Positions 6,184 to 45,870 are shown, counted from the first letter of the stretch. The stretch: DNA of 64,000 nucleotides from Bacteroidales bacterium (GCA_963665525.1 OY762280.1:705451-769450); one strand, 5' to 3'. Notes: generated by a model from the sequence alone, not told the origin. Numbers and translations: made by a program.

Positions 6184-6210
6184 TGTATGATGTTTTTGTA
6201 TGGTTGTATT

Positions 6211-11089: not shown

Positions 11090-11090
11090 T

Positions 11091-15358: not shown

Positions 15359-15451
15359 AATATGTTTTTATATGATTTTAGAAAATGCTGTTAAAACTAA
15401 AAAAATACGATTTAGTAAAAAAGGATTGTTTACATATAATGGAGATATATT

Positions 15452-16786
15452 TTAAAATGATAAAGTAAAAGTCGTATTTGAATTTTGCTCGGATTGAACA
15501 GAAATATTACCGCCATGTAAATGTATTATTTGTTGGGCAAGGCTTAATCCAATGCCTGATCCATTCTCTTTGTTTGTATAAAAAGGTAGAAAAATTTTAT
15601 CCATTTCATTTTCTTCTATACCAAATCCATTATCTGTTATTGTAATACATGATTTGTTATCATAGTAAAAAGCTTTTAATACAATTCGCTTATCCTGAAC
15701 ATTTTTTAAGGCATGAATTGAATTCGTGATTAAGTTAATGATGATTTGTTCCAGCAAACTTTCATCGGCATTAATACTCATGCTAATAGGTTCAATTACA
15801 ATATCAAATTGTATATCTTGTAACTCAATTTCGTTTATTAGTAGTTTCTTTATACGACCAAATAAGTTATTCAACTTTATTTCTTTGATAACAGGTTGAG
15901 GAATCTTGGTAAGTTTCTTATAGTTCGTTACAAAATCAGTTAGATTAGAACTTCTTTTTTCGATTGCCTGAATACCTTCTAAAATATTTTCTAATTGAAT
16001 TTTATCAATGTTTTCATTCTTTAATTCATCTGATAATGTTTCATAAATAGTCGATGAAAGAGATTTTATAGGACTTATTGAGTTCATGATTTCATGTGAA
16101 ATTACACGAATGACTTCTTGCCATGTTTTCATCTCTTTTTCTTGCAACTCACTTTTTACATTATAGAAAGTATACAATTTGATTTCTTTATCCTTTATTT
16201 TAAAGTGAGTTAAATTTATTGAGATCGGAATATTCTCACCTTTAATATTGAATATGTGTACGAGCGAATTGTCAAGTGTAACTTTTTGAAGGATGTTTTC
16301 TAATGAAATGTGTAGTTGATTTATATGCTTAATATTCTGAATGTTTTGCTTAAAAATAGTATTGATAAATGAATTATGAAATTCTATATTTTTATCGTTA
16401 ATAGCTAAAACCCCAACATTAACACTTTCAAGCAAATATGAAAGATAATATTCATTAAATAACTTTTCTTTTTCGAGACTTTTATATTTGGATGATAGAT
16501 TGTTTGAAATGTTCTTAATTAATTCTTCATTAAGATTATAAGAGGTGTTGACTAATCTATCTTCTGCATCTTTTAATGTAATATTCTTTAAATAGTGAAT
16601 GATTTTCTGATTCTTTCGCTGTACATAATAGTACAATATGAATCCTTGTCCAATAAGTATAGCAATAAAATAGAAGGTAGTAAATTGTAAGTTTTCTTTT
16701 TGAGTGCTAAATGCAATTAAAAGACTAACCACAATAATTAGTATTATCTGAGTAATAAGACTTATTTCGAATTTCTTATATTCCAT
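15452..16786 (-). CDS. Sensor histidine kinase (module 1), two N-terminal TM helices with a very short outside loop
   Basis: 444 aa. TM1 ISLITQIILIIVVSLLIAFS, ~9-aa loop, TM2 TFYFIAILIGQGFILYYYV. H-box VISHEIMNSISPI, N-box INLITNSIHAL, G-boxes ITDNGFGI and GSGIGLSLAQQIIHLHGG. Confidence 0.9.
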   Translation of the reverse strand: MEYKKFEISLITQIILIIVVSLLIAFSTQKENLQFTTFYFIAILIGQGFILYYYVQRKNQKIIHYLKNITLKDAEDRLVNTSYNLNEELIKNISNNLSSKYKSLEKEKLFNEYYLSYLLESVNVGVLAINDKNIEFHNSFINTIFKQNIQNIKHINQLHISLENILQKVTLDNSLVHIFNIKGENIPISINLTHFKIKDKEIKLYTFYNVKSELQEKEMKTWQEVIRVISHEIMNSISPIKSLSSTIYETLSDELKNENIDKIQLENILEGIQAIEKRSSNLTDFVTNYKKLTKIPQPVIKEIKLNNLFGRIKKLLINEIELQDIQFDIVIEPISMSINADESLLEQIIINLITNSIHALKNVQDKRIVLKAFYYDNKSCITITDNGFGIEENEMDKIFLPFYTNKENGSGIGLSLAQQIIHLHGGNISVQSEQNSNTTFTLSF

Positions 16787-18140
16787 GTTTTTTCATTTTA
16801 CGATATAGAGTAGCTCTGGTAATACCAAGTTGGTTGGATGTTTCCGAAATATTATAATTAAACTTTCTAAGAGCATCCTGAATAATTCTTTTTTCGTTAG
16901 TGTCTAAATTAAAAGTACGTGTTTGAGAAGTTTCAGTGCTTAAGGCCTGATTAATTTGAATATCTTCTTGTTTAATGACATCGTTCTCACATAATATAAG
17001 TGCTTTTTCAATAGTATGCTCAAATTCTCTTATGTTTCCTGGCCAGTTATGCTTAATTAGTAGGTCAATTACATTTGGATAAATTTTAATATCTTCTTTT
17101 TGATATTTTCTTTTGTATTTCTCAAGAAAGAACGAAGTAAGCGCAGGTATATCTTCTTTTCTTTCTCTTAATGGAGGTAGTTCAATTTGGATGGTATTAA
17201 TTCGATAAAGGAGATCTTCCCTGAATTTTGATTGATTAATCATTTCGTATAATGGCATGTTCGTAGCACTTATAAGTCTTATGTTAACCGGAACAGGCTT
17301 ATTTGAACCTACTTTATAAATTTCACGATTTTGTAAAACAGTAAGTAATTTAGCTTGCTGCTCAATGGGTAAATTTCCAATTTCATCTAAGAATAGAGTA
17401 CCTTCCGAAGCTATCTCAAAACGGCCTGTTCGGTCCTTATTCGCACTGGTAAACGAACCTTTTAAATGTCCAAATAATTCACTTTCAATTAAGGATGAAG
17501 GAAAGGAGCTAATATCAACAGAAACAAAAATATCGTTGGCCCGATTAGATTGTTTATGAATTTCACGTGCAATGATTTCTTTCCCTGTTCCGTTTTCTCC
17601 CAGAATTAAAATATTCGTTTCTGTCTTAGCAACCTTCTGAATGGTTGAAAATACCTTTTGAATAGATGCAGATTCACCAACAAATAATCCATACGATTTT
17701 GAGATATCGTATTTTAGTTGTTGTTGTTTGTTTTTAAGCGTTTTTATTTCAATTTTAGACTGCTTTAATTTAACAGCATTTTGAATAGTGGCTAGAATTT
17801 TTTCATTATCCCAGGGTTTCTCGATAAAATCCATTGCACCTTCTTTTAGGGTTCGAACTGCGAGTTCCACATTGCCATAAGCAGTTAAAAATATAATGGA
17901 TGAATCGGGCGAGATTTCTTTGATACGCTTCATCCAGAAAATCCCTTCATTACAATTATTAATTCCTGAAGTAAAATTCATATCCAAAACAATTACATCA
18001 TAATCTTTCGATGAAACATTACTTGGGATCTGTTCCGGGTTACTTATTGTATCAATTGTTGAAAAGTGTTTTGATAAGAACATTTTAAGAGCCAGAAGAA
18101 CTTCTTTATTATCATCAACAATTAGAATATTTGCTTGCAT
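16776..18140 (-). CDS. Sigma-54-dependent response regulator (NtrC family bEBP), module 1
   Basis: 454 aa. Receiver (ILIVDDN...VIVLDMNF), AAA+ Walker A GENGTGKE, GAFTGA-type loop GSFTSA, Walker B LFLDEIG, C-terminal Fis-type HTH (LGITRATLYRKMKKHGI). 11-nt overlap with the HK start. Confidence 0.9.
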   Translation of the reverse strand: MQANILIVDDNKEVLLALKMFLSKHFSTIDTISNPEQIPSNVSSKDYDVIVLDMNFTSGINNCNEGIFWMKRIKEISPDSSIIFLTAYGNVELAVRTLKEGAMDFIEKPWDNEKILATIQNAVKLKQSKIEIKTLKNKQQQLKYDISKSYGLFVGESASIQKVFSTIQKVAKTETNILILGENGTGKEIIAREIHKQSNRANDIFVSVDISSFPSSLIESELFGHLKGSFTSANKDRTGRFEIASEGTLFLDEIGNLPIEQQAKLLTVLQNREIYKVGSNKPVPVNIRLISATNMPLYEMINQSKFREDLLYRINTIQIELPPLRERKEDIPALTSFFLEKYKRKYQKEDIKIYPNVIDLLIKHNWPGNIREFEHTIEKALILCENDVIKQEDIQINQALSTETSQTRTFNLDTNEKRIIQDALRKFNYNISETSNQLGITRATLYRKMKKHGI

Positions 18141-18152
18141 GTATTTATTTGG

Positions 18153-18169
18153 TGTTTAAAAACAATACA
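18153..18169. promoter_or_regulatory. TGT-N11-ACA dyad (candidate regulator site) in divergent region 1
   Basis: TGTTTAAAAACAATACA. The same TGT-N11-ACA spacing recurs in divergent regions 2 and 3. Confidence 0.3.
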
Positions 18170-18177
18170 CAAATGTA
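18170..18177 (-). promoter_or_regulatory. Bacteroidota-type -7 box (TAnnTTTG) for the RR1-HK1 operon
   Basis: Minus strand reads TACATTTG, 30 nt upstream of the RR1 ATG. A TTTG (-33-like) lies 20 nt further upstream (plus-strand CAAA at 18198-18201). Confidence 0.4.
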
Positions 18178-18254
18178 TTAATATTAAACATCAAAATCAA
18201 ATTAAATTTTAATAATAGTCATATAATCAATGATATATGATTTCGGAATAAGAT

Positions 18255-18271
18255 TGGCATACACCTAACTG
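18255..18271 (+). promoter_or_regulatory. Candidate sigma-54 -24/-12-like element upstream of FtsX permease 1
   Basis: TGGCATACACCTAACTG, 50 nt before the ATG. TGGCA matches the -24 box. The -12 GC is not canonical. Confidence 0.3.
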
Positions 18272-18304
18272 AAAAATTAGATTTATTCATTAAATTTATA
18301 GACC

Positions 18305-20692
18305 ATGTTTAGAAATTATTTAAAAATAGCTCAACGAAATATCTTAAAACGAAAAGTTTTTTCTTTAATCAACATCGTTGGTTTATCGGTTAGTATTGCT
18401 GTTAGTATTTTAATATTACTTTATGCTGTGCACGAATTATCATACGATAGTTATTATGATAATGTTGATGCTAAGTATCGTGTTGTTTCGCATGTAATAC
18501 ACGGTGAAGAAGAGTATACCAATAATGTATCGAATGGAACACTGGCAGGCGATATTTTAGAAATAATCCCTGGGGTTAAAAATGCTTTCCAGGTATATAT
18601 TGATTTTCCATATGTTCAGGTTGGTAATGAAACATATTTAGAAGACAATTATGATGTTTATTATGCCGGGGATGGAATATTTGATTTTTTTTCAGTAAAA
18701 TTCACTGAGGGGAATCCTGAAACGGCATTGAAAGAACCTTTTTCTATTGTTCTTACAGAGACCTATGCTCATAAATATTTTGGGGATTCATTAGTATTGG
18801 GTAAATCCTTATTGGTTAATTCAAAATTGGAATATAAAGTAACCGGAGTTGTAAAGGATTTACCTGAAAATACTCATTTTAAGTTTAATATCTTATTCTC
18901 CTTACCATCTCTTTTAAAGACTTATGGTTTAAATGATTATCATCCATTTAGAAATTCTTTTATAACTTATGTTGAATTCTCACACAATGAGAATATTGAA
19001 CAAGTTGAGAAAAAGATAACAGAAATTTCATTGAGTTATTTACCTCCTCAATTAAAAGAAATGATTACTGTTTGGAAAACTTTACAGCCAATAAAAGATA
19101 TTCATTTAAAATCTGATTTTGAAGATAAATACAAGGGAGGAAATATTAAAATTATCTATATTTTCTCATCCATTGCCATATTAATATTACTACTTGCATG
19201 TATTAATTATATTAACTTATCTACTGCCCAATATTCTTCAAGAACAAAAGAGGTTGCTATAAGAAAAACAACAGGAGCGAACAGGAGTAGTCTGGTTAAG
19301 CAATTTATTACTGAATCGGTTATAATAATATTACTAAGTTTAGCAACAGCAATCGTTATTGCCGAATTTTTCTTGCCAATATTTAATACAATTATAAATT
19401 TCCAATTAAAAATAGCATATTTCGAGAAATGGTATAATGTACTTCTTATTCTGGGAGTAGGATTTCTTGTAAGTTTGATTTCATCGCTATATCCTGCATT
19501 TTATCTTTCGTCATTTAAAGTTGTTGATGTATTTAAAATGAAAATTCGTATTGGTAAAGGAAATATTAACATTCGAAGAGTTCTGGTTGTATTTCAATTT
19601 ACTGTGACTGTTTTTTTGATTATTAGTACTTTAATAATTAGTAAGCAGCTTAATTATGTGAATAATAAAGATTTGGGATTTAATAAAAATAACTTAATGA
19701 CTGTTAGGCTAAATAATAAACAGGCTATTAGTCAATTAGAAGTATTAAAAAATGAAATTGAAAATCTTTCTTGTGTTCATTCATCTACAGTTAGTTCTAA
19801 TTTTCCAAGTGGTACAGCTAGTTGGGAGAATATATTTGAATTTGAAGGCCATGAAAGTGAGCAATTTGATGTAATGCCATTATTAGATGTTGATTATAAT
19901 TTCTTAGAAACAATGCAAATTAGTTTATCTAGAGGGCGAAATTTTTCTACAGAATTTTTTACTGATTCAAATGCAGTATTAGTTAATGAAACTTTGGTTA
20001 AATTAATGAATTGGAAAGAACCAATAGGGAAGAAAATTATTGAGAGAGTTGAAGATAAGACTTATACATATCACGTGATTGGAATTTTTAGGGATTATCA
20101 TAAGGAATCGTTACATTCTGCTGTGAAGCCAATGATGCTTAGGTTAGCGCAGAGAAAAAGATATTTGTTGGTTAGATTGACTCATGATTTTTCAGAAGAA
20201 AATATTCAAGAGATAAAAGCAGTTTGGGATAAGTTTTGTCCAGGCAAACCTTTTCAAAATATTTTCATTGACGATGCCTTTGATAGGCTATATCAATCAG
20301 AAAGAAATTTATCAAATATTTTTATTTACTTTTCGGTTATTGCAATAATCATAGCATGTTTGGGACTATTAGGTTTAATAACTTTGTTTACTCAACAAAA
20401 AACAAAAGAAATATCTATTAGAAAAATACTTGGTGCAAAAGCTTCTAATATAACATTGATATTAACCAAGGAGTTTATTATACTTCAACTTATTGCTAAT
20501 GTAATAGCAATGCCTGTTGCTTATTTTGCTATGAACAAATGGCTGGCTGGTTTTACTTTTCATGTTAAAATTGGCTGGCTTGTTTTTGTATTAGGAGCCG
20601 TGATAACAGCTATTATTTCTATTGCAGCAATTAGTATTCAAACTTATAAAGCTGCAGTTTCTAATCCATCAGAAAACCTTCGTTACGAGTAG
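18305..20692 (+). CDS. MacB/FtsX-family permease 1, double FtsX module (about 8 TM, two periplasmic domains), no ATPase domain
   Basis: 795 aa. Family-typical N-terminus (YLKIAQRNILKRKVFSLINIVGLSVSIAV...ELSYDSYY). TM1 + ~240-aa loop + 3 TM, repeated once. C-terminus NPSENLRYE. Confidence 0.85.
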   Translation: MFRNYLKIAQRNILKRKVFSLINIVGLSVSIAVSILILLYAVHELSYDSYYDNVDAKYRVVSHVIHGEEEYTNNVSNGTLAGDILEIIPGVKNAFQVYIDFPYVQVGNETYLEDNYDVYYAGDGIFDFFSVKFTEGNPETALKEPFSIVLTETYAHKYFGDSLVLGKSLLVNSKLEYKVTGVVKDLPENTHFKFNILFSLPSLLKTYGLNDYHPFRNSFITYVEFSHNENIEQVEKKITEISLSYLPPQLKEMITVWKTLQPIKDIHLKSDFEDKYKGGNIKIIYIFSSIAILILLLACINYINLSTAQYSSRTKEVAIRKTTGANRSSLVKQFITESVIIILLSLATAIVIAEFFLPIFNTIINFQLKIAYFEKWYNVLLILGVGFLVSLISSLYPAFYLSSFKVVDVFKMKIRIGKGNINIRRVLVVFQFTVTVFLIISTLIISKQLNYVNNKDLGFNKNNLMTVRLNNKQAISQLEVLKNEIENLSCVHSSTVSSNFPSGTASWENIFEFEGHESEQFDVMPLLDVDYNFLETMQISLSRGRNFSTEFFTDSNAVLVNETLVKLMNWKEPIGKKIIERVEDKTYTYHVIGIFRDYHKESLHSAVKPMMLRLAQRKRYLLVRLTHDFSEENIQEIKAVWDKFCPGKPFQNIFIDDAFDRLYQSERNLSNIFIYFSVIAIIIACLGLLGLITLFTQQKTKEISIRKILGAKASNITLILTKEFIILQLIANVIAMPVAYFAMNKWLAGFTFHVKIGWLVFVLGAVITAIISIAAISIQTYKAAVSNPSENLRYE

Positions 20693-20693
20693 T

Positions 20694-22046
20694 TTAAAAT
20701 GATAAAGTAAAGGTCGTATTTGAATTTTGCTCCGATTGAACAGAAATACTACCTCCATGTAATCGCATAATTTGTTGAGCAAGGCTTAGTCCAATTCCTG
20801 AGCCTTGTTCTTTCGTTGTAAAAAACGGAATAAATATCTGATCCATAATATCTTTTGGAATTCCTGCGCCATTATCGCTAATTTCTAAATGGGGTTTACC
20901 TTTATGATTAATAAATGCTCTTAAGTTAATTTGCCCAGATTTTCCTGAAACTGCATCTACCGAGTTTTTTATCAGATTAATAAAAGTTTGTTCAATGTAT
21001 CTTTTATCAGCATTAATCTCCAGATCAATTGGTAAAATACTGATGTTAAGCTTAATTTCTTTTGTCTCAAGTTTTTCTTTTAACAAGAGTTCCAGGTTAT
21101 AAAAAAGCTCGGCAACTTTAAATCTCTCAAAGTTCATTGTTTTAAGAGAAGAAATACTACGGTAGTTATTTACAAAATCAACCAATCCTTCACCTCGTTT
21201 AGTTATGATGTGTAGACCTTCGGTTGTTTTTGAAATGATATGATCTGTAATTTCGGTTTTTGTGATAGCCCTGTTTTGTTCTTTTATAAAAAGCTTTTCT
21301 AATGAATTGGATAAAGAGGTAATAGGAGATATGGTATTGTTAATTTCGTGTGTTAGTATTCGAATTAATTTATGCCACGATTCGATTTCTTTTTCACTAA
21401 GTTCTGTTTCTATATTTTGAAACGAAACTAGTTTTAACTGATCATTCTTGATTTTAAATTCTGAAATTTTTATGGACAGTGGTAATGCTTTTGTTTGGCC
21501 TTTAATCATCATTGATTTCTCATCTCCAGAATGACTGTTCTTTAAAAAATGATAGAAATTAGGATGAATATTTTCAATTTCTTCAATCTGGTGTATCTTT
21601 TTTATATTAAGAAGCTCGGTAGCACTTTTATTAATTAAATCAACATGACCCGAACTATTAATTGTAATAATTCCTGTTTGTGCATGCTCTATAACCGTTT
21701 TATAATATGACTGTTGGATTTCTTTTAATTCGGTTATATTAAATAACTGATCTCTGATATAGTTAATATTATTTTGAAATTCTTGATTGATATAAGGAAA
21801 TACTTTATCGTGAAATGCAAACGAAGCATCTTGAGTTTTTAGTGCAGCAAAAAAGTTTACAATTTCGCGGTTAAAACGATTGATATATTTTAAAAGCAAA
21901 CCAATTTGCACGATTAGTAAAGCGATCAGGCTGAGTACTGTAAAAAGTTTTTCTGGATTACGAAAAAACGGAACAATGCTAATGCATGTTACAAGGATGA
22001 GAATTATCCTTACCAGTATGTTGATATAAAAATTTTTACTTAACAC
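20694..22046 (-). CDS. Sensor histidine kinase (module 2), short-loop 2-TM type
   Basis: 450 aa with a GTG start. TM1 NILVRIILILVTCISIVPFF, loop RNPEKLFT, TM2 VLSLIALLIVQIGLLLKYI. H-box ILTHEINNTISPI, G-boxes ISDNGAGIP and GSGIGLSLAQQIMRLHGG. Confidence 0.9.
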   Translation of the reverse strand: MLSKNFYINILVRIILILVTCISIVPFFRNPEKLFTVLSLIALLIVQIGLLLKYINRFNREIVNFFAALKTQDASFAFHDKVFPYINQEFQNNINYIRDQLFNITELKEIQQSYYKTVIEHAQTGIITINSSGHVDLINKSATELLNIKKIHQIEEIENIHPNFYHFLKNSHSGDEKSMMIKGQTKALPLSIKISEFKIKNDQLKLVSFQNIETELSEKEIESWHKLIRILTHEINNTISPITSLSNSLEKLFIKEQNRAITKTEITDHIISKTTEGLHIITKRGEGLVDFVNNYRSISSLKTMNFERFKVAELFYNLELLLKEKLETKEIKLNISILPIDLEINADKRYIEQTFINLIKNSVDAVSGKSGQINLRAFINHKGKPHLEISDNGAGIPKDIMDQIFIPFFTTKEQGSGIGLSLAQQIMRLHGGSISVQSEQNSNTTFTLSF

Positions 22047-22048
22047 GA

Positions 22049-23410
22049 TTATAAATTGTATTTTTTAATCTTATTATATAATGTTTGACGTGTTAATCCT
22101 AATTCTTTGGCAGCATCTATCATCTTACCGGAATTATTAGCTAAAGCTCTTTGTATAGCTGTTTTTTCAATTTCTTCAAATTTTAACGGCCATTCCGATG
22201 ATGTTTGCACAGATTTAAGCATAAAATCGCTGGGCTGTAATGTATTGCCAGCACACAAGATAACTGCTTTTTCTATCGTATGCTTAAGTTCGCGGATATT
22301 GCCAGGCCAAGCGTAGGATTGCAATGTATTTATTGCATTATGACTTAATTTCAAGAAAGGCTTTTCGTATTTTGTTGTGAATATCTTTAAATAATATTCG
22401 GCGATTGGAATTATATCATCTTCTCTTTGTCGTAGTGGTGGAAGTTCAATTTGTAACGTATTTATTCGATAATATAAATCTTCACGAAATAAACCTTCCT
22501 GAATGAGCTTGTCAAGATTCTTATTAGTTGCTGAAATTAATCTTACATCAATTTCTGTTGATGAGTTGCTTCCTATTGGAGTTATAGTTTTATTTTGCAG
22601 AGCAGTTAGCATTTTGGCTTGTAGTGAGGTAGGGATATTCCCAATTTCGTCTAAGAATAAAGTGCCTTTATTGGCAATTTCAAATCTGCCTGTACGGTCT
22701 TCTTTTGCATCGGTAAAAGATCCTTTTTTATGTCCAAAGAGCTCACTTTCAAATAATGTTTCAGGAATAGATCCTAAATCTATGCCTATCATAGGGTTAG
22801 ATTTTCGCTTCGATTTTCTATGGATTTCTTTGGCGATAAGTTCTTTACCTGTTCCGTTCTCGCCCAGTATAAGAACATTTACTTCGGTTCCTGCAACTTT
22901 CTCAATCAGATCAAAAACCTCTTTCATTTTAGATGAGAATCCAATGATCTTTTCGGTGGGTTTATTTATTTCATTGCTTAATGTATCTTTTTCTTTCGAA
23001 AGTTTCTTAATCTCTAGTTGCGATTCCCTGATCTTTAAAGCAGACCTTAAGGTGCTTATTAGTTTTTCGTTATTCCATGGTTTGATTACAAAATCAGTAG
23101 CTCCTTCTTTAATGGCTTTAACTGCTAAATCAACATCTCCATAAGCTGTTATGAAAATTACAATCGCATTTTCGTCTGCTTTAAGTATTTCATGTAACCA
23201 AAATATTCCTTCATTTCCGGTATTTAATCCTGCCGAGAAATTCATATCAAGAAGAATAACATCATACTCTTCTTTTTTGTATTCAGATAAAAGAGAATTG
23301 GGATTAGATATTGTTTTGACGACCTCAAATTCGTTATCTAATAATATTTTTAATGAACGTAAGATGTTTTTATCATCATCTACAATTAATATCTTACCTT
23401 TAGATAGCAT
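22049..23410 (-). CDS. Sigma-54-dependent response regulator (NtrC family), module 2
   Basis: 453 aa. Receiver (ILIVDDD...VILLDMNF), GENGTGKE, GSFTDA, LFLDEIG, HTH LGLTRQTLYNKIKKYNL. Confidence 0.9.
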   Translation of the reverse strand: MLSKGKILIVDDDKNILRSLKILLDNEFEVVKTISNPNSLLSEYKKEEYDVILLDMNFSAGLNTGNEGIFWLHEILKADENAIVIFITAYGDVDLAVKAIKEGATDFVIKPWNNEKLISTLRSALKIRESQLEIKKLSKEKDTLSNEINKPTEKIIGFSSKMKEVFDLIEKVAGTEVNVLILGENGTGKELIAKEIHRKSKRKSNPMIGIDLGSIPETLFESELFGHKKGSFTDAKEDRTGRFEIANKGTLFLDEIGNIPTSLQAKMLTALQNKTITPIGSNSSTEIDVRLISATNKNLDKLIQEGLFREDLYYRINTLQIELPPLRQREDDIIPIAEYYLKIFTTKYEKPFLKLSHNAINTLQSYAWPGNIRELKHTIEKAVILCAGNTLQPSDFMLKSVQTSSEWPLKFEEIEKTAIQRALANNSGKMIDAAKELGLTRQTLYNKIKKYNL

Positions 23411-23455
23411 TATATACTTAAAAATTGAATTGAACGTAAAATAAATTTACCTAAA

Positions 23456-23472
23456 TGTAAAAATATTTTACA
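23456..23472. promoter_or_regulatory. Inverted repeat TGTAAAA-ATA-TTTTACA (TGT-N11-ACA) in divergent region 2
   Basis: 7-nt perfect arms with a 3-nt spacer, about 65 nt upstream of the candidate -24/-12 element at 23537. Confidence 0.35.
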
Positions 23473-23536
23473 TTTTAAAAAAGTTTAATTAATTGAGTGA
23501 GGTTTAAAGCGCAGATTATCAATGAATAAATTATGT

Positions 23537-23553
23537 TGGCATTTTTATTGGCA
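23537..23553 (+). promoter_or_regulatory. Candidate sigma-54 -24/-12-like element upstream of FtsX permease 2
   Basis: TGGCATTTTTATTGGCA, 52 nt before the ATG. TGGCA is at -24. TTGGC stands in place of TTGC, so the GC is offset by 1 nt. Confidence 0.35.
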
Positions 23554-23588
23554 TATTGAGTAAAAATGTTAAATAAAAATTCAAAATT

Positions 23589-28734: not shown

Positions 28735-28753
28735 AATAAATACTTTTGTAAAT

Positions 28754-28761
28754 CAAAGCTA
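28754..28761 (-). promoter_or_regulatory. Bacteroidota-type -7 box (TAnnTTTG) with -33 TTTG for the RR3-HK3 operon
   Basis: Minus strand reads TAGCTTTG, 20 nt upstream of the RR3 ATG. A TTTG lies 19 nt further upstream (plus-strand CAAA at 28781-28784). Confidence 0.45.
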
Positions 28762-28790
28762 TTGTTTATTTTCATTGATTCAAAATATGT

Positions 28791-28807
28791 TGTATGATTT
28801 TGGAACA
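28791..28807. promoter_or_regulatory. TGT-N11-ACA dyad in divergent region 3
   Basis: TGTATGATTTTGGAACA. It overlaps a direct repeat ATGATTTTGGA (28794-28804 and 28816-28826). Confidence 0.3.
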
Positions 28808-28893
28808 CTTGGTGGATGATTTTGGATCATAGTATGTAAAAGATTAAATTTAAAAATTCATTAAGTAATTGATTGTAAGCTTGAAAAAGTTTT

Positions 28894-28910
28894 TGGTATA
28901 AGATTAGATT
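28894..28910 (+). promoter_or_regulatory. Candidate sigma-54 -24/-12-like element upstream of FtsX permease 3
   Basis: TGGTATAAGATTAGATT, 45 nt before the ATG. GG is present at -24, but the -12 box is weak. Confidence 0.25.
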
Positions 28911-28938
28911 TAATCATCTAAACCGAAAATTACTAGTT

Positions 28939-31308
28939 ATGTTTATAAAGAATATTATTTTATCGATACGAATTATGTTAAGAAGCAAACTGTTTTCGTT
29001 TCTTAATATTGTTGGATTAGCTTTTGGATTGGCTTGTACAATTCTATTGTATTTATGGGTTACCGATGAATTATCATATAATACTTACCACGAAAAAGTC
29101 GATCGTATATTTATTGTTCAGCACTGGCAACATTATGGCGACGAAGATTATCATGTTTGGGTGGGACCTGGTCCTATGGCTGCAGCATTTAAAGAAAAAT
29201 ATCCAGAGGTTGAGGCAATTGCGCGATATAGTAGAGCTTATAATGGTTTAGTAAGTTATAAAGATAAAAAATTAACACAAGAGGTAGGTGCTGCTGATCC
29301 TGAAATTCTTGATATTTATACCTGCCCGTTTGTACAAGGAAGTAAGGAGGATTTTGCTTCAGGACTAGATAATATAATTATTTCAGAAGAGATTGCTCAA
29401 CAATATTTTGGAGATGATGACCCCATTGGAAAAACATTGGTTGTTGATGGTAAATTTTCTTTTATCGTACAAGGAGTATTTAAGAATTTTCCAGATAATG
29501 TAAGTTTTGATTTTGATATTTTAATCCTCTTTGAAAAACTTAAAGATTTTGGACAGGATTTAGAGTCTTGGGGTACGAATTGGTGTTTTAATCTTGCTTT
29601 GCTTCACGAAGGAGTAGACTACAAAGAATTTGAGAAGAAAGCAGTTACCTTTCTTGATGAGATGAAGGAAAATCCGGAGGACCGTAAAAACGAAGTATTT
29701 TTAAATCCTTTAGCTAGGGTGTACTTGCATGACATTGAAGGTGGCGGTCGCATTGAAATGGTTCGTCTTTTTGGTATCATTGCTGCTTTTATTCTAATTA
29801 TTGCTTGTTTTAATTATACCAATTTGGCTACAGCTAGAGCTGAGAACAGGGCAAAAGAAATAGCGGTTCGAAAAGTGATGTCTGCTTCAAAAGGCAGGTT
29901 AATTAAACAATTTTTAGGTGAGTCTTTAATTTTTACATTTTTAGCTCTTAATTTTTCGCTCATCATTGTTCAGCTTTTACTGCCAACATTTAATGAAATG
30001 GCTAATAAAGAGCTATACATGGATTATTCAAATATAACAATCATATTAAGTTTAATATTTATATGGTTGTTTACAAGTTTAGCAGCAGGAATTTATCCTG
30101 CTTTTGTATTATCATCATTTAAAGTAGTAAGCACATTAAAAGGATCCAAAGGAAATAGTTCTCGAGGTGGAGTTTTTAGAAAAGTGCTTGTAGTTATTCA
30201 GTTTTCGTTATCTATTGGGTTAATAATATGTACTTTAGTTGTTAATAAGCAAATAGAGTTTCTAAAGCAGAAAGATTTAAAGTTTGATAAAAACAACATG
30301 GTGTATGTTCAAATTCAAGGAAAAATGATGGATAGGTATGATATTATTAAACAGGGATTGTTAAATAATCCTAACATTCTTAGCCTTACAAGAACATCTC
30401 ATCAATCTCCATTTATGGTAGGTAGTAATGGTGGTGGATGGCAATGGGAAGGGAAAGATCCAGATGTTAGTCCATTAGTATCAGCGATGGTTGCAGATGA
30501 GAATTTTATTAAAACATTTAAAATTAAGCTTTTCGAAGGTAGATATTTTTCTCCCGAATTTAGTTCAGATACTGCTAGTGCCAGCACAAAGGTATACAAT
30601 ATCGTAATTAATAAAATGTTTGCCGATATTATTGGCGATAATGCGGTTAATAAGATTTTGCATCGCGGCGGGACATATAAATTCCCTGTAATTGGAATTA
30701 TTGATGATTTTGCATATTTACCGGCAAATCAAATGAACAGGCCGTTAGCTATTTATTTTTATGAAGGTGAATATCGTTATATTTTTATTCGGGTAACTGG
30801 AAACGAAATAGCAGAAACAATTAAATATATTCAGTCAGTATTTGAGGAATATAACCCTGGTTTTGTATTCGATTATGGTTTCTTAGCTGAAGGATATGAA
30901 ACTTTATATAGTGATGAAGAACGTGTTAGTAAGATTATGAGATCGTTTACCATTTTTGCAATTTTAATCTCATGTTTAGGATTATTTGGTTTGGCGGCCT
31001 TTTCGGCACAAAAGAAAACTAAAGAAATTGGAATAAGAAAAGCTTTAGGAGCTCCAGTTATGAACATTATCTTATTGCTTTCGAAAGAAATGACAAAGTG
31101 GGTATTGATTTCTAATATTATTGCCTGGCCTGTTGCATATTTTCTAATGAATAAACTTTTAGATAATTATCCATATCACTACGAAATGACCATCTGGATA
31201 TTTTTAATAGCTGGAGTAACTGCATTTGGTTTATCAATCTTAACAGTCATTTATCAAGCCTTGGTTGCATCAGTTAGAAATCCAGTCGATAGCTTAAGGT
31301 ATGAATAA
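28939..31308 (+). CDS. MacB/FtsX-family permease 3, double FtsX module, no ATPase domain
   Basis: 789 aa. N-terminus IILSIRIMLRSKLFSFLNIVGLAFGLACTILLYLWVTDELSYNTYH, two TM1-loop-3TM halves, C-terminus NPVDSLRYE. Confidence 0.85.
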   Translation: MFIKNIILSIRIMLRSKLFSFLNIVGLAFGLACTILLYLWVTDELSYNTYHEKVDRIFIVQHWQHYGDEDYHVWVGPGPMAAAFKEKYPEVEAIARYSRAYNGLVSYKDKKLTQEVGAADPEILDIYTCPFVQGSKEDFASGLDNIIISEEIAQQYFGDDDPIGKTLVVDGKFSFIVQGVFKNFPDNVSFDFDILILFEKLKDFGQDLESWGTNWCFNLALLHEGVDYKEFEKKAVTFLDEMKENPEDRKNEVFLNPLARVYLHDIEGGGRIEMVRLFGIIAAFILIIACFNYTNLATARAENRAKEIAVRKVMSASKGRLIKQFLGESLIFTFLALNFSLIIVQLLLPTFNEMANKELYMDYSNITIILSLIFIWLFTSLAAGIYPAFVLSSFKVVSTLKGSKGNSSRGGVFRKVLVVIQFSLSIGLIICTLVVNKQIEFLKQKDLKFDKNNMVYVQIQGKMMDRYDIIKQGLLNNPNILSLTRTSHQSPFMVGSNGGGWQWEGKDPDVSPLVSAMVADENFIKTFKIKLFEGRYFSPEFSSDTASASTKVYNIVINKMFADIIGDNAVNKILHRGGTYKFPVIGIIDDFAYLPANQMNRPLAIYFYEGEYRYIFIRVTGNEIAETIKYIQSVFEEYNPGFVFDYGFLAEGYETLYSDEERVSKIMRSFTIFAILISCLGLFGLAAFSAQKKTKEIGIRKALGAPVMNIILLLSKEMTKWVLISNIIAWPVAYFLMNKLLDNYPYHYEMTIWIFLIAGVTAFGLSILTVIYQALVASVRNPVDSLRYE

Positions 31309-31309
31309 A

Positions 31310-32659
31310 TTAAAATTGTAAAGAAAAACTTGTTTCTGTTTCGCTAGACTGAGCAGAAATACTACCACCATGCAATCGCATTATTTGACGAGCAAGGCTT
31401 AATCCAATTCCGGAGCCTTGCTCTTTTGTTGTAAAGAATGGCATAAATATTTGGTCTATGATTTCGTCAGGTATGCCAGGTCCATTATCTACTACTGATA
31501 TTTCGGTTCTTTTATCTGCGTTCACATGTGCAATCATCTTTATTTCTTTATGATCAGTATGAATAATGGATTCGATTGCATTCTTTAAAAGATTAATTAA
31601 TATTTGCTCAATAAGTTTTTTATCAGCTTCAATCATAATTGCTTCTGGATTTGTATTTGTTGCAATTTTGATATTATTCTTATCTATAGAATCTTGAAAA
31701 AGTAAAATAATCTTATGAAAAAGAGGGGTGAGTTCAATTTTACTAATTTTTAAAGCTTGTATTTTTGTCAAACTTCTGTATTTCTCTACAAATTCTTGAA
31801 GTCCGGCACTTCTATCTTCAATTAAGGAAGTGTTTATGAGTGCATCTTTAATTTGATCATTATCTAAATTTTCAATAGTCCCCGGTTCTCCATCAATAGT
31901 TAGACACTTATTTATTGCAAGGGTTAGATTAGAAATAGGAGTAATGGAGTTCATGATTTCGTGAGTTAAAATACGAATTAGTTTTTGCCACGAAATCAAT
32001 TCGTTTTCTTCCAGTTCATTTTTAACATCCTGAAATGAGATAAGTTTTAGATGATCATTTTCGAATTTAAATTTTGTTGAACGAACTAATATTTGAGTAA
32101 ACTGATTGTTTATTTTTAAACGTATAACCTTTTGATCTCCCGGGTTTATATTATCTAATTCCTTATGTAAATCAGGAATTGTAGATTTAATTTTGCCTAG
32201 AGAATTAACTGATTCCAGGCAAAGTAATTTTTTTAGTGCTTGATTAGTATGTATTATATTTCCGGTTTCATTAACTGTCAATATTCCTATAGGGATATGT
32301 TCGACAACAAATTCGAAATATTTGGAGCTTTTTTCTGATTTAATTCTAGATTGTCCAATTAAATCAGCCACTTCGTTTAAGGTAGAAGCTAATTCCTTAA
32401 ATGCACCTTTATTATCGTTAAATTTTAATTGTGTTGATGAACCTTCATCTTTCAGTGCAGCAAAGAAACGAGATAGTTCAAAATTTGTTTTATTAATATA
32501 ATTGATAAGCGAAATCACTTGTATTACAAGTAATGAACTTAAAGTGATAATGGTATATATTTTATCAAGCTCACGAAAACTAAATGATAACCACAGACAA
32601 TTAAGCAAAAGCAAAATTATTCTGATAATGATATTAAAATAGAATCTTTTATAAATCAT
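31310..32659 (-). CDS. Sensor histidine kinase (module 4), short-loop 2-TM type
   Basis: 449 aa. TM1 FNIIIRIILLLLNCLWLSFSF, loop RELDKIYT, TM2 IITLSSLLVIQVISLINYI. H-box ILTHEIMNSITPI, G-boxes VVDNGPGIP and GSGIGLSLARQIMRLHGG. Confidence 0.9.
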   Translation of the reverse strand: MIYKRFYFNIIIRIILLLLNCLWLSFSFRELDKIYTIITLSSLLVIQVISLINYINKTNFELSRFFAALKDEGSSTQLKFNDNKGAFKELASTLNEVADLIGQSRIKSEKSSKYFEFVVEHIPIGILTVNETGNIIHTNQALKKLLCLESVNSLGKIKSTIPDLHKELDNINPGDQKVIRLKINNQFTQILVRSTKFKFENDHLKLISFQDVKNELEENELISWQKLIRILTHEIMNSITPISNLTLAINKCLTIDGEPGTIENLDNDQIKDALINTSLIEDRSAGLQEFVEKYRSLTKIQALKISKIELTPLFHKIILLFQDSIDKNNIKIATNTNPEAIMIEADKKLIEQILINLLKNAIESIIHTDHKEIKMIAHVNADKRTEISVVDNGPGIPDEIIDQIFMPFFTTKEQGSGIGLSLARQIMRLHGGSISAQSSETETSFSLQF

Positions 32660-34022
32660 ATTTACTCATTTTGGAATATAATGTAGATCTTGAAATATCT
32701 AATATCTTGGCTGCTTTACTTAGATTGCCATTTGCCTTTTTTAGAGCATTCTCAAGAACAAGTTTTTCGGCATCAGCTAAGGTCTCAATATTTGTGAATC
32801 CTTGCTGTTTAATAGTGTAATCGTGACCAAAGAAATCCGATTCATTTAAACTGTTTGATTCGCATAAAATAACTGCTTTTTCAACAGTATGTTTTAATTC
32901 TCGAATATTTCCCGGCCAGTTGTGATTCATTAATTTATCGTAAGCCTTTCCGCTTAATTTTAATAATGGCTTTTGATATTGTTTACAGTATTTCTTAACA
33001 AAATATTCAGCAAGTTCAATAATATCATCGTCTCTGTCTCGTAATGGAGGTACAGTTATTTCAATTGTATTTAATCGATATAACAAATCTTCTCGGAAAA
33101 GATTTTCTTTCACTAAATTTTTCAGGTTATTATTTGTGGCAGAAATTAAGCGAATATCAATAGGAATATTAGTATTTGAACCCAGCGGTACTATTTGTCT
33201 TTGCTCTAATACAGTTAATATTTTCGATTGTAGTAATAATGATAGATTACTGATCTCATCTAAGAATAAAGTTCCTTTATCGGCTAATTCAAATCTACCA
33301 ATACGCGATTCTTTGGCATCGGTAAAAGCACCCTTAGCGTGTCCAAAAAGCTCGCTTTCAAAAAGGGTTTCTGCAACTGATCCCATATCAACACTAATAA
33401 ATGGATCTTTATTTCGTGCCGATAAAAGATGAATCTCACGTGCAATGAGTTCTTTCCCGGTTCCATTTTCTCCCTGAATTAAAATATTAGCATCAGTCTC
33501 AGCAACTTTTTGGATCGTTTTTAAAAGATTTTTAATGACAGGTGAGTTTCCAATTATTTGGTTTTCTAATTTATTGATATCGGCATTTAAAGCTTTATTT
33601 TTGTTTTTCAACTTATTCAGTTCGGTTTTTGCTTTTCTAAGTTTTAGTCCTGATTGAATGGTTGTGATCAGTTTGTTAGGATCCCAGGGTTTGGTAATGA
33701 AGTCGGTTCCACCTTCTTTTATTGCTTTTACAGCAAGTTCTATGTCACCATATGCTGTCATTAATAAAACAATGGCATTTGGATCTATATTTAAGATTTC
33801 TCTCAACCAGTAAATCCCTTCGTTTCCCGTATTTTCAGAAGCTTTAAAGTTCATGTCCAATAATATTACATCAAATTGCAATGTGCTAATCAGATGATGT
33901 ATGGAATTTGGATTTGAAATGGTTTTTATCTCGTTAAAATCGTGTTTTAATAATTGTTTTAGAGAACTAAGTATGCTGGTGTTGTCGTCAACAATTAAGA
34001 TATTTCCTTCTTTTTTAGTCAT
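32649..34022 (-). CDS. Sigma-54-dependent response regulator (NtrC family), module 4
   Basis: 457 aa. ILIVDDN...VILLDMNF, GENGTGKE, GAFTDA, LFLDEIS, HTH LDISRSTLYSKMSKYDL. Confidence 0.9.
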   Translation of the reverse strand: MTKKEGNILIVDDNTSILSSLKQLLKHDFNEIKTISNPNSIHHLISTLQFDVILLDMNFKASENTGNEGIYWLREILNIDPNAIVLLMTAYGDIELAVKAIKEGGTDFITKPWDPNKLITTIQSGLKLRKAKTELNKLKNKNKALNADINKLENQIIGNSPVIKNLLKTIQKVAETDANILIQGENGTGKELIAREIHLLSARNKDPFISVDMGSVAETLFESELFGHAKGAFTDAKESRIGRFELADKGTLFLDEISNLSLLLQSKILTVLEQRQIVPLGSNTNIPIDIRLISATNNNLKNLVKENLFREDLLYRLNTIEITVPPLRDRDDDIIELAEYFVKKYCKQYQKPLLKLSGKAYDKLMNHNWPGNIRELKHTVEKAVILCESNSLNESDFFGHDYTIKQQGFTNIETLADAEKLVLENALKKANGNLSKAAKILDISRSTLYSKMSKYDL

Positions 34023-34042
34023 TTTAATACTTATATTTAATA

Positions 34043-34050
34043 CAAATATA
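34043..34050 (-). promoter_or_regulatory. Bacteroidota-type -7 box (TAnnTTTG) for the RR4-HK4 operon
   Basis: Minus strand reads TATATTTG, 21 nt upstream of the RR4 ATG. Confidence 0.35.
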
Positions 34051-34064
34051 AATTAAAAAATAAA

Positions 34065-34105
34065 ATTGTATAAAATATGGCACCTATTGTCGTATTTTAT
34101 ACAAT
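34065..34105. promoter_or_regulatory. 13-nt perfect inverted repeat ATTGTATAAAATA-N15-TATTTTATACAAT in divergent region 4
   Basis: Arms at 34065-34077 and 34093-34105. The spacer contains TGGCAC (34078-34083). It lies 64-104 nt upstream of the candidate -24/-12 element at 34169. Confidence 0.4.
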
Positions 34106-34168
34106 TCTTAATGTGAAAGTATTAGTATATTGTAGGTAAGTTGCATATATATAATATTTTAAGTTGTT

Positions 34169-34185
34169 TGGTATAATGTTGGCAA
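34169..34185 (+). promoter_or_regulatory. Candidate sigma-54 -24/-12 element upstream of FtsX permease 4
   Basis: TGGTATAATGTTGGCAA, 37 nt before the ATG. The GG and GC dinucleotides are at canonical -24/-12 spacing. Confidence 0.35.
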
Positions 34186-34205
34186 TATGTAAATAAAATA
34201 TTGTT

Positions 34206-36569
34206 ATGATAAAAAATTATTTTAAAACAGCCATAAGAAACTTGTTACGTTACAAGTGGAACTCTTTATTTAACATCTTAGGATTGTCAATTGGAATTGC
34301 ATGTTTTATTTACATTTTATTTTTATTGAGGTTTGAACTAAAGTATGATAGCTTTCATAAAGATATTGAGAGGATTTATCGTATTCCTATGACATTGAAG
34401 GTTAAAGGACGAACAACTAACTATGCTGGTATGCCTAGTAAATATGGTAGGTATATAAAGAATAATTTTAGCGAGGTTGAGAAATTTGCCAGAATAAGAC
34501 CATCAACAACGACTATCTTCTCGTATCAGGATAAAAAGTTTATTGAGGAAAATTTTAAATATGTAGAACAAGATATCTTCGATATTTTCACATTTGAATT
34601 TATTAATGGAAATCAAAAAACAGCTTTGGTCAATCCTTTTACTGCAGTTATTACCGAAGAGATATCTGCTAAGTATTTTGGTGCAGAAAACCCAGTTGGA
34701 AAACTTATTAAAATTGATACTGCATTTTATGAAGTTACTGGGGTTATTAAAAAACTTCCTCGAAATTCCAGATTAAAACTCGATGTGTTTTTATCTTTTG
34801 TTACAGGAAACCCTGATCAACATGATGATTGGAGAGCAGGAGGTTTTTTGCATACCTTTATTAAATTAAAAGAAGGGATTAATCCAGATGAATTTAATAA
34901 GAAACTACTACAAGTTCCTGAAATAGTATCGGGTGAAACCCTTAAAGAGCAAGGAGAAGTAAATATACCATATCTTCAAGCTTTAAAAGATATTCATACG
35001 GATAATTCTATTGATTATACATGGGATACAGAACCAATTACAAACCCTACATATATTTATATTCTTTTTGTAACAGGTATATTTATTTTAATCATTGCCA
35101 GTTTAAATTTCATTAATCTATCAACAGCAAAATATATATCACGTTCAAAAGAAGTTGGTTTAAGAAAAGTATCGGGGGCTTCACGTTGGCAGTTAATTAT
35201 TCAATTTTTTGGGGAATCGGTTTTATTGGTTTTTATTGCTCATATTATAGGAATGTTTTTAGTAGAACTAAGTATTGATAAGTTTAACGAGATAACACAA
35301 ATTAATCTGGATGTCGATTATAGTTCTCTGTTTATATGGATTATTATAATTGGGTTGATTTTATTTATAGGGATTATTGCAGGAAGTTATCCTGCATTTC
35401 TATTATCTTCATTCAACCCTGTTAATATTTATAATAATAAAGCTGGACGTAAAAGAGGAAGCAGCCTAAGAAAGATACTGGTAATCATTCAATATACAGT
35501 AACAATAATTCTGATAATTGGTACAACGTTTATTATTAAACAAGTCAATTTTATGGTTAACGCTCCTTTGGGTTTTAATAAAGAGCAAAAACTGATTGTT
35601 GAATTTCCTCGTGAGTTATTGAATATAAATAGTTATAAAGCTGTTAAAAATGAGTTCAACGAAATTCCTGGAGTATATTCAACTTGTTTTTCGTCAAGCG
35701 TTCCCGGAAGATGGCGTTATAAGTGGAGAATATGGGCTACTGGCGAAGAAGAGATGTCTAAACATATTTATTGCACTCAGGTTGATAATGACTATTTTGA
35801 TGTTTATGATATTAAGCTATTAAAAGGAGAGAAATATTTTATAGAAAATACAAGAGATACTGATTGGATATTGAATGAATCGGCAATGAAAATTTATGGA
35901 TGGAATATTGATTCAGTTTTGTATCAATCGTTACAAGGAAGACATAATATTAAAGCTGTTGTTAAAGATTACCATTTTGAAGGTTTACAGAAAAAGATTG
36001 AACCTTTAGCTTTCTTTCATATTAGTGATGATATTCGTTATTTGACAATTCAGTTAGAAAAAGGAAATACAGGTCAGCAATTAGCACGTGTTAAAGAGAA
36101 GTATCTGGCATTATATCCTGATTTAGTTTTCAATTACTTTTTTCTTGATCAAGATTTTGAAAGGCAGTATCAAGCAGAAAAACGTATTGTTAAACTGTTT
36201 TCAATATTTACAACAATAGGTTTAATCATAGCGATAATAGGAATATTTGGGTTGGCAGTGTTTATGTGTCAACAAAAAGAAAAAGAAATTGGAATTCGAA
36301 AAGTGAATGGAGCTTCAAGTTGGGATATATTCAAGCTTTTATCTTTCGATTTTTCTAAATGGATTTTCATATCCTTTGTTATTTCTATTCCAATTGTGTA
36401 TTGGGGAGTAAGTATTTGGATTAAAAACTTTGCTTATCAGGTTAATGTTTCTTGGTTTGTGATCTTATTATCAGGCATTTTAGCTTGGTTGATTGCTATA
36501 CTAACCATATCTTATCAGGCATTAAGGTCGGCACGAAAAAATCCTATTGAGTCATTGAGATACGAATAA
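34206..36569 (+). CDS. MacB/FtsX-family permease 4, double FtsX module, no ATPase domain
   Basis: 787 aa. N-terminus YFKTAIRNLLRYKWNSLFNILGLSIGIACFIYILFLL, two TM1-loop-3TM halves, C-terminus NPIESLRYE. Confidence 0.85.
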   Translation: MIKNYFKTAIRNLLRYKWNSLFNILGLSIGIACFIYILFLLRFELKYDSFHKDIERIYRIPMTLKVKGRTTNYAGMPSKYGRYIKNNFSEVEKFARIRPSTTTIFSYQDKKFIEENFKYVEQDIFDIFTFEFINGNQKTALVNPFTAVITEEISAKYFGAENPVGKLIKIDTAFYEVTGVIKKLPRNSRLKLDVFLSFVTGNPDQHDDWRAGGFLHTFIKLKEGINPDEFNKKLLQVPEIVSGETLKEQGEVNIPYLQALKDIHTDNSIDYTWDTEPITNPTYIYILFVTGIFILIIASLNFINLSTAKYISRSKEVGLRKVSGASRWQLIIQFFGESVLLVFIAHIIGMFLVELSIDKFNEITQINLDVDYSSLFIWIIIIGLILFIGIIAGSYPAFLLSSFNPVNIYNNKAGRKRGSSLRKILVIIQYTVTIILIIGTTFIIKQVNFMVNAPLGFNKEQKLIVEFPRELLNINSYKAVKNEFNEIPGVYSTCFSSSVPGRWRYKWRIWATGEEEMSKHIYCTQVDNDYFDVYDIKLLKGEKYFIENTRDTDWILNESAMKIYGWNIDSVLYQSLQGRHNIKAVVKDYHFEGLQKKIEPLAFFHISDDIRYLTIQLEKGNTGQQLARVKEKYLALYPDLVFNYFFLDQDFERQYQAEKRIVKLFSIFTTIGLIIAIIGIFGLAVFMCQQKEKEIGIRKVNGASSWDIFKLLSFDFSKWIFISFVISIPIVYWGVSIWIKNFAYQVNVSWFVILLSGILAWLIAILTISYQALRSARKNPIESLRYE

Positions 36570-38547: not shown

Positions 38548-38564
38548 TGGCATAAAATGTGATA
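38548..38564 (+). promoter_or_regulatory. Candidate sigma-54 -24/-12-like element upstream of FtsX permease 5
   Basis: TGGCATAAAATGTGATA, 110 nt before the ATG. This is farther from the start than in the other five copies, and the -12 box is weak. Confidence 0.25.
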
Positions 38565-45853: not shown

Positions 45854-45870
45854 TGGAATATAGTTTGATT
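45854..45870 (+). promoter_or_regulatory. Candidate sigma-54 -24/-12-like element upstream of FtsX permease 6
   Basis: TGGAATATAGTTTGATT, 49 nt before the ATG. GG at -24, and TTGA in place of TTGC at -12. Confidence 0.3.

Follow-up and report, generated by a model that had tools for sequence, protein, structure and literature searches.

Four-fold pairing of sigma-54-type two-component systems with orphan MacB-like permeases in a Bacteroidales genome

In Firmicutes, the Bce modules (BceRS-BceAB) couple a two-component system to an ABC permease of the FtsX fold, with several paralogous modules per genome (PMC11009047, PMC10314905). In their kinases, only a very short linker separates the two transmembrane (TM) helices, and an extracytoplasmic domain is missing (PMC11009047). 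FtsX-fold permeases with a periplasmic domain between TM1 and TM2 are also found in the MacAB-TolC and DarBCD systems, and DarB is a double-FtsX permease. A further family, ADOP (TIGR03434), comprises proteins of ~800 amino acids with two MacB_PCD+FtsX halves, which form tandem paralog arrays, usually without an adjacent ATPase; arrays of ADOP-like orphan permeases are on record for the Bacteroidota Psychroflexus torquis and Dyadobacter (PMC3914696, PMC11573002). Here we analyze a stretch of 64,000 nucleotides from a Bacteroidales bacterium (GCA_963665525.1 OY762280.1:705451-769450), referred to as the window and numbered from its first nucleotide, in which positions 15452-36569 hold four consecutive cassettes of a sensor histidine kinase (HK), an NtrC-type response regulator (RR) and a double-FtsX permease (FX). 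We conclude that a widespread MacAB-like system under sigma-54 regulation is present here in a reduced, insulated and four-fold form, to which two further permeases, FX5 and FX6, also belong. The original prediction made for this DNA was right in essence, but has to be reframed.

The window permeases share the size, the two-halved architecture, the tandem arrangement and the lack of an adjacent ATPase with ADOP, and match the TIGR03434 model over their full length. Their scores of 228.8-297.9 bits are, however, far below the cutoff of 622.3 bits, their lineage is not Acidobacteria, and they are tied to a sigma-54 two-component system, of which we found no mention in the ADOP reports. The resemblance to MacAB-TolC and DarBCD lies in the fold and in relatives that are encoded in operons with a membrane fusion protein (MFP) and an ATPase. 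In contrast to these systems, the window cassettes contain neither ATPase nor MFP and have a dedicated sigma-54 two-component system; against the DarB model they reach 98.9-150.9 bits (cutoff 700), and genes for the biosynthesis of ribosomally synthesized and post-translationally modified peptides are not present. With the Bce modules, the closest functional analogue, the window shares a kinase type in which the two TM helices are closely linked and an extracytoplasmic domain is missing. It differs in that the regulator is of the sigma-54-dependent NtrC type instead of the OmpR type, the kinase has a PAS-like domain and the host is a diderm Bacteroidota. The permeases differ as well: BceB has 10 TM helices, a single domain between TM7 and TM8 and an adjacent BceA, whereas the permeases described here have ~8 TM helices, two domains and no ATPase.

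The original prediction had called the system not characterized, which holds in part. Orphan permease arrays were already published, and so was a link of such permeases to sigma-54: a 2025 in-silico survey predicts that genes of COG0577 (FtsX-like permeases) are preceded by sigma-54 promoters, with an enrichment in Bacteroidia, and describes this as the first such link (PMC12316311). In the passages searched, the link is an enrichment at the level of the COG only, with no dedicated kinase/regulator family, cassette arrays, enhancer elements or experiments. Our literature search likewise found no description of a dedicated kinase/regulator family, of cassette arrays or of enhancer elements, and no experimental study; a term search in the sigma-54 review of Francke et al. 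returned nothing on an HK-RR/permease module.

The map of open reading frames (ORFs) exactly reproduces the predicted layout of four ~5.3-kb units, each with HK and RR genes on the minus strand that are divergent from a ~790-residue double-FtsX permease on the plus strand. Unit 1 (15452-20693) consists of HK1 (15452-16786), RR1 (16776-18140) and FX1 (18305-20692), unit 2 (20694-26006) of HK2 (20694-22046), RR2 (22049-23410) and FX2 (23589-26006), unit 3 (26007-31309) of HK3 (26007-27407), RR3 (27361-28734) and FX3 (28939-31308), and unit 4 (31310-36569) of HK4 (31310-32659), RR4 (32649-34022) and FX4 (34206-36569). HK3 probably starts at the ATG at 27371 and not at the TTG at 27407, because its overlap with RR3 then amounts to 11 nt, as in units 1 and 4. 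Two more permeases of the same kind follow on the plus strand, FX5 (38658-41042), which has no adjoining two-component system, and FX6 (45903-48317). Both MacB_PCD and FtsX were matched by Pfam in both halves of all six permeases, except that in FX4 a single MacB_PCD stretch passes.

All four regulators show the Pfam domains Response_reg, Sigma54_activat, AAA_lid_14 and HTH_8, i.e. a receiver, an AAA+ domain and a helix-turn-helix (HTH), with Sigma54_activat scores of 222-228 bits, which is the architecture of the NtrC family of bacterial enhancer-binding proteins. D53 and the motif GENGTGKE are invariant across RR1-4. The motifs quoted in the original prediction were found, the L1 loops being GSFTSA, GSFTDA, GAFTDA and GAFTDA in RR1 to RR4, respectively.

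The kinases were all matched by HATPase_c, HK4 also weakly by PAS. An AlphaFold2 model of HK4, calculated from an alignment of 98 sequences (mean pLDDT 79), shows two helices, residues 3-29 and 34-70, connected by a turn of 4 residues, followed by a helical linker, a PAS-like α/β domain (125-211), the DHp helices (216-298) and the catalytic domain (306-448). The same architecture, with the H-box HEIMN in DHp, is inferred for HK1 from this model. Hydropathy segmentation of the family was crude and fragmented the helices, and only the end point of the segments was used: in none of the 98 kinase homologs do these segments extend beyond about residue 56-70, which leaves no room for a periplasmic sensor. 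The kinase is thus predicted to have the intramembrane-sensing topology of BceS, with an additional cytoplasmic PAS domain. The family is large, with 7847 proteins at E<=1e-30 among 8000 candidates scored.

According to hydropathy, the permeases have ~8 TM helices and two periplasmic domains of ~230 residues. The closest solved structure is MacB (5lil), and the permeases have the fold of the MacB/type VII superfamily, an FtsX module of four TM helices in which TM1 and TM2 flank a large periplasmic domain. Between the window paralogs the periplasmic domains are the most diverged part, with 26-32% identity vs 41-43% for the TM regions; this is consistent with different substrates. The loop between TM2 and TM3 carries a KEIGIRKALGA-like motif that is invariant in both halves of all six permeases. 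We take this loop, by reference to MacB structures, to be the coupling helix that contacts the ATPase, and its invariance therefore argues that the permeases still engage one. That they are orphans, as the original prediction had it, was borne out within the window. Its two ABC ATPases (11091-11999 and 57856-58740) are DrrA/GldA-like ABC-2 types, each located directly upstream of, and coupled to, its own large permease gene of 1100-1200 codons (1 nt and 16 nt away), and are ~30% identical to the MacB/DarD-type ATPases beside these permeases elsewhere.

The relatives of the cassettes place the window in a wider family. On the permease side, searching reference genomes with an alignment of the six permeases yielded 80 loci, which belong to Bacteroidota, Ignavibacteria, Aminicenantes, Acidobacteriota and other groups. 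Tandem permease arrays are frequent in them, with up to 11 consecutive copies. At ten of these 80 loci, HK and RR genes on the minus strand are divergent from a ~416-residue HlyD-type MFP and a ~230-residue ATPase followed by one to six permeases; the nearest NCBIfam models of these ATPases are DarD, MacB and LolD. At the loci L003 and L008, one or two ATPase genes head operons of up to six permease genes. A kinase-side scan of metagenomes with the kinase alignment added ~25 full-length relatives (loci among L081-L111), and in all 15 with a usable upstream flank the RR-HK operon faces transporter genes. The layouts comprise MFP-(FX)-ATPase-FX, ATPase-FX, ATPase and FX at a distance of 2-4 kb from the RR (L098-L100, L105), and FX alone (L085, L094). 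Kinase homologs in three further loci (L161, L163 and L164) likewise face FtsX-type transporter genes. Across the family, the MFP-ATPase-permease layout is the most frequent one. This adjacency across many contexts identifies the HK-RR/transporter combination as a conserved module and not an accident of one genome. The dedicated pairing of a sigma-54 two-component system with MacB-like permeases, and the conservation of the trio across Bacteroidota, Ignavibacteria and unclassified metagenome contigs, are therefore in agreement with the original prediction. Rather than a self-contained new system, the window cassettes appear to be a stripped-down derivative of the widespread operon in which HK-RR is divergent from an MFP, a MacB-type ATPase and one or more permeases.

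Sigma-54 control was evaluated for the family in 25 intergenic regions between RR and transporter genes, scanned on both strands and compared with shuffled sequences. The pattern TGGCAY-N5-TTG was found oriented toward the transporter in 10 of them and never on the opposite strand (0.02 expected), and a relaxed −24/−12 pattern in 16 (0.10 expected). These sites are mostly located 14-51 nt before the start codon, with one at 86 nt. The −12 element varies: L101 has the canonical TTGCT, unit 2 and several Cytophagia-type loci have TTGGC, and others have TTAGT or TTGAT. The sole regulator with a canonical GAFTGA loop (L101, 967-2358) faces this sole canonical −12 element (region 803-966), while all G(A/S)FTDA regulators face the variants TTGGC, TTAGT and TTGAT; this single case hints that L1 loop and −12 region co-vary.

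To locate the elements in the window, all 127,970 positions were scored with a position weight matrix (PWM) trained on foreign loci only. The site of unit 2, TGGCATTTTTATTGGC (23537-23552, plus strand, 36 nt before the ATG), ranked first among all positions and is conserved in L039, a Bacteroidales metagenome-assembled genome. For the other permeases, candidate sites on the plus strand were found at 18244-18259 in unit 1 (CGGAATAAGATTGGCA, a GG-N10-GC match 45 nt before the FX1 ATG, rank 2208), at 28894-28909 in unit 3 (TGGTATAAGATTAGAT, 29 nt, rank 231, with a degenerate −12 element) and at 34169-34184 in unit 4 (TGGTATAATGTTGGCA, GG-N10-GC, 21 nt, rank 1460), as well as before FX5 (38548-38563, TGGCATAAAATGTGAT, 94 nt, rank 61) and FX6 (45854-45869, TGGAATATAGTTTGAT, 33 nt, rank 23). 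Several of these are retained in orthologs. The unit 3 site corresponds to TGGTATGACTTTGGTA in L039, at equal distance to the ATG and with a conserved −24 element; the 16-mer of unit 4 is identical in L161, though the kinases are only 62% identical; and at the position aligned with the FX5 site, L161 has TGGCATAATGTATGCA, in which the −24 element is conserved and the −12 element is a near-canonical ATGCA. With the canonical score defined a priori, a site scoring >=13 is located within 80 nt of five of the six FX genes vs three of 22 control genes (Fisher p ~0.003). Sigma-54 control thus has good support in the family at large and in unit 2; at the other window permeases it is plausible.

The divergent intergenic regions between RR and FX, which span 164-204 bp in the window, also contain repeats that resemble enhancers. 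They comprise an inverted repeat with 22-nt arms that are 82% complementary in unit 1 (18148-18195), a palindrome AAATGTAAAA-N3-TTTTACATTT in unit 2 (23453-23475), largely conserved in L039, two 20-nt direct repeats with a common …ATGATTTTGGA… at a spacing of 22 nt in unit 3 (28788-28829), conserved in L039 and L161, and a perfect 12-nt inverted repeat TTGTATAAAATA-N15-TATTTTATACAA in unit 4 (34066-34104). DHp helix 1, receiver α1 and the HTH recognition helix are constant among orthologs and different between paralogs. Paralog-specific repeats, HTH, DHp and receiver α1 are what would be expected of four pathways that do not cross-talk and have distinct DNA targets. Together with the divergence of the periplasmic domains, this paralog specificity, which is kept among orthologs, fits the suggestion that each unit is tuned to a different signal or substrate.

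The array is old. Between paralogs, protein identities are 33.6-40.9% for HK, 49.2-56.1% for RR and 31.4-40.1% for FX, and RR2 and RR3, which had been judged by eye to be a little over half identical, share 56.1%. As whole units are ~65% identical at the DNA level and their proteins only 31-56%, the array is neither a recent amplification nor an assembly artefact; such an origin, for which nothing speaks beyond the repeated layout, can be regarded as refuted, the more so since units 2, 3 and 4 each have separate orthologs in other assemblies. Units 2 and 3 are found in the same order in L039 with 67-78% identity (HK2 67%, RR2 77%, FX3 78%; HK3 also has orthologs there and in L161), and L161 contains unit 3 followed by unit 4, as in the window (FX3 62-69%). 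The reading of the array as old and maintained was thereby confirmed. In L161, unit 3 faces genes for a β-lactamase-family protein and a DUF4932 protein followed by two permeases, FX3a and FX3b, while unit 4 is followed in direct, almost contiguous succession by FX4', FX5' (84%) and FX6' (85%). Because their orthologs directly succeed the unit 4 permease there, FX5 and FX6 appear to be ancestral members of the unit 4 block and not loose extras; FX6 groups with the first permease of an MFP-FX-ATPase-FX operon (L082). Compared with L161, the genes that separate the permeases in the window, a protein with a type IX secretion system (T9SS) tail (36714-38432) and an ankyrin-repeat protein followed by three tandem PD40 β-propeller paralogs (41216-45763), look like insertions into an ancestral three-permease block.

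Whether the cassettes were amplified as units is less clear-cut. In broad neighbor-joining trees the deep nodes were poorly supported, and nearest-neighbor identities and restricted quartet bootstraps were used instead. HK and FX favor the same grouping (1,2|3,4), with 97% and 70%, respectively, which speaks for joint amplification, while RR favors (1,3|2,4) with 92%, which speaks against it. In RR this signal can be traced to the receiver (97%), and in HK the DHp domain by itself favors (1,4|2,3). Receiver and DHp are two interacting surfaces, and the conflict between their trees may be explained by selection for partner specificity after duplication. Distances among the window paralogs are about the same as those to Ignavibacteria homologs, and each window permease has a closer relative outside than any window paralog; FX2, for instance, is 46.5% identical to an Ignavibacteria permease vs at most 38.4% to its paralogs. 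At all three junctions between units, the convergent stop codons of a permease and the next kinase are separated by 0-1 nt (20692/20694, 26006/26007, 31308/31310). The gap is 3 nt in L161 and L163, and 370 nt in L039. These near-zero junctions in the window, like the 3-nt gaps of L161 and L163, fit a repeated copying of one junction. Duplication en bloc thus appears plausible and partly supported, and would be ancient if it happened. At the unit junctions, terminator scans gave no more matches than in shuffled sequences, and the hairpins within the 3' ends of the HK genes result from the conserved coding motif GSGIGLSLA.

We propose, with a probability of roughly 60%, that the four units are insulated signal-response modules, each leading from a kinase via an NtrC-type regulator and a sigma-54 promoter to a double-FtsX permease, and that they are reduced MacAB/DarBCD-like operons with an ATPase supplied in trans. 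The membrane-anchored kinase, with its TM hairpin, essentially no external loop and a cytoplasmic PAS domain, would phosphorylate its own NtrC-type regulator. This would bind the unit-specific repeats in the divergent intergenic region and activate the −24/−12 promoter that drives the adjoining double-FtsX, MacB-type (type VII ABC) permease. The two-component system would be the dedicated regulator of MacAB/DarBCD-like operons, which in this lineage would have been reduced to the permease alone. The permeases would most likely dock on a MacB-type ATPase, probably together with an MFP and a channel in the outer membrane, and the genes of these partners would be located elsewhere on the genome. 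They would probably serve to remove compounds that act on the envelope, by expulsion or extraction, with a specificity determined by the diverged periplasmic domains, and FX5 and FX6 would be further sigma-54-driven members of the unit 4 block. The activation of the neighboring permease, the supply of ATPase and MFP in trans and the role in efflux or envelope defense are the inferred parts of this scheme.

Several observations weigh against this proposal. The L1 loop is G(A/S)FT(D/S)A and not GAFTGA. F and T are retained, G(A/S)FTDA is found in 31 of 34 family members and GAFTDA is a tolerated variant recorded in D. vulgaris (PMC4641369), but this does not extend to GSFTSA of RR1. In units 1, 3 and 4 the candidate promoters match the PWM weakly, the canonical GC at −12 is kept by units 1 and 4 only, and the inverted repeat of unit 4 is absent from the intergenic region of L161, which is shorter. 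Neither a MacB-type ATPase nor a matching MFP is encoded within the 64-kb window, and 33 of 47 long permease loci lack a MacB-type ATPase within ±10 kb, 14 of which hold four or more permeases. Moreover, in one locus (L165) an ATPase fragment but no permease accompanies the two-component system: at 7824-9969 of CP070654.1, RR-HK faces a 184-residue ABC ATPase and a small T9SS-tailed protein, without a permease within 10 kb.

The topology of the kinase raises the question of what it senses. Since the kinase itself would have no view of the periplasm, the permease with its two large periplasmic domains may, as in Bce modules, be the real sensor and report its transport activity to the kinase through TM-TM contacts, which would amount to a self-monitoring detoxification by flux sensing and would add to the proposed pathway rather than replace it. 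The TM hairpin with an outer turn of only 4 residues and no extracytoplasmic domain is the defining trait of Bce-type kinases (PMC11009047), its strict co-location with permeases of the FtsX fold extends across phyla, and multiple paralogous cassettes occur as in Firmicutes. However, the cytoplasmic PAS-like domain could sense by itself, the permease differs from BceB in its 8 rather than 10 TM helices and in its two periplasmic domains rather than one extracytoplasmic domain, and the regulator is NtrC-type, not OmpR-type, so that we consider flux sensing possible but doubtful. A sigma-54-wired Bacteroidota counterpart of Bce, in which a sensor-less kinase reads the activity of its partner permease and each signal induces a different plug-in permease that competes for one shared chassis of ATPase, MFP and outer-membrane channel, is rather unlikely; if true, the shared chassis would account for the frequent orphan state and the high multiplication of ADOP-type permeases. 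More speculatively still, an induced cassette could read through the terminator-less 0-1-nt junctions in antisense into the kinase-regulator operon of its neighbor, imposing a hierarchy.

The missing ATPase could also mean that the permeases work without one, or that their main function is not export but mechanotransmission or the scaffolding of periplasmic enzymes, in the way that FtsEX serves cell-wall hydrolases. The prevalence of orphans among the long loci, including those with at least four permeases, agrees with this, as does the description of the ADOP family, which is built on the same lack of an ATPase. Hydrolase genes also accompany the permeases, namely the β-lactamase-family and DUF4932 genes in L161 (16301-18842), a β-lactamase-family gene in L163 (16698-17900), an S9 peptidase gene in L164 (2496-5327), and the esterase and metallo-β-lactamase-fold genes after FX6. 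Yet the presumed coupling-helix motif is invariant in both halves, close relatives are encoded in operons with MacB/DarD-type ATPases and MFPs, and FtsX itself requires FtsE, which makes ATPase independence distinctly improbable. Finally, the two-component systems might regulate something else, for example nitrogen metabolism, with the permeases adjacent by coincidence: JGI labels many homologs NtrY, and NCBIfam returns sub-threshold matches to NtrX, AtoC, ZraR and others. This is very unlikely, as the adjacency persists in Bacteroidota, Ignavibacteria and unclassified metagenome contigs, the promoter elements point toward the transporter genes only, all NCBIfam matches are below their cutoffs and the kinase has no periplasmic domain. 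An identity as NtrY/NtrX was rejected: NtrX scores were 292-316 bits (cutoff 600), no NtrY model is among the best 25 of 62 NCBIfam matches for HK1, and the context in kinase-side loci is that of a transporter.

The surroundings of the array are rich in envelope and efflux genes. On the minus strand, a complete operon for a resistance-nodulation-division (RND) efflux system (1901-7728) encodes an outer-membrane factor (6211-7728), a HlyD-type adaptor (5134-6183) and an AcrB-family pump (1901-4978). The two ABC-2 systems at 7739-11999 and 54219-58740, also on the minus strand, are paralogous, their ATPases being 48% identical; one of the large genes contains a Golvesin_C domain, and the other is a fusion of ABC2_membrane with an M1 peptidase domain. 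After FX6, genes for an α/β-hydrolase-TPR, an FG-GAP, a metallo-β-lactamase-fold and an esterase-TPR protein are located on the plus strand (48433-54084), with a sigma-54-like element, GGGCTTTTCTTTTGCT, upstream of 48433. A 213-residue ORF antisense within RR2 (22503-23144, plus strand) is most likely spurious, and an Rfam search of the region 12-50 kb gave no matches. L039 also encodes an 855-residue protein consisting almost wholly of pentatricopeptide repeats (15156-17723, minus strand; 351 bits to PPR_2), which is unusual for bacteria.

Orphan permeases of the double-FtsX type belong to those membrane-protein families of Bacteroidota and Acidobacteriota that have expanded most and are least well understood. 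The locus and the pattern seen in its family provide an experimental handle on them, in the form of a dedicated kinase/activator pair, recognizable promoters and unit-specific enhancer-like sites. With four insulated copies side by side, the array is a natural system in which to study the stimuli that induce each permease and the means by which cross-talk between paralogous sigma-54 pathways is prevented. If one ATPase did serve all permeases, such modularity would be unusual among ABC exporters. The main value of the locus is that it offers a tractable way into the function and energization of orphan double-FtsX permeases.

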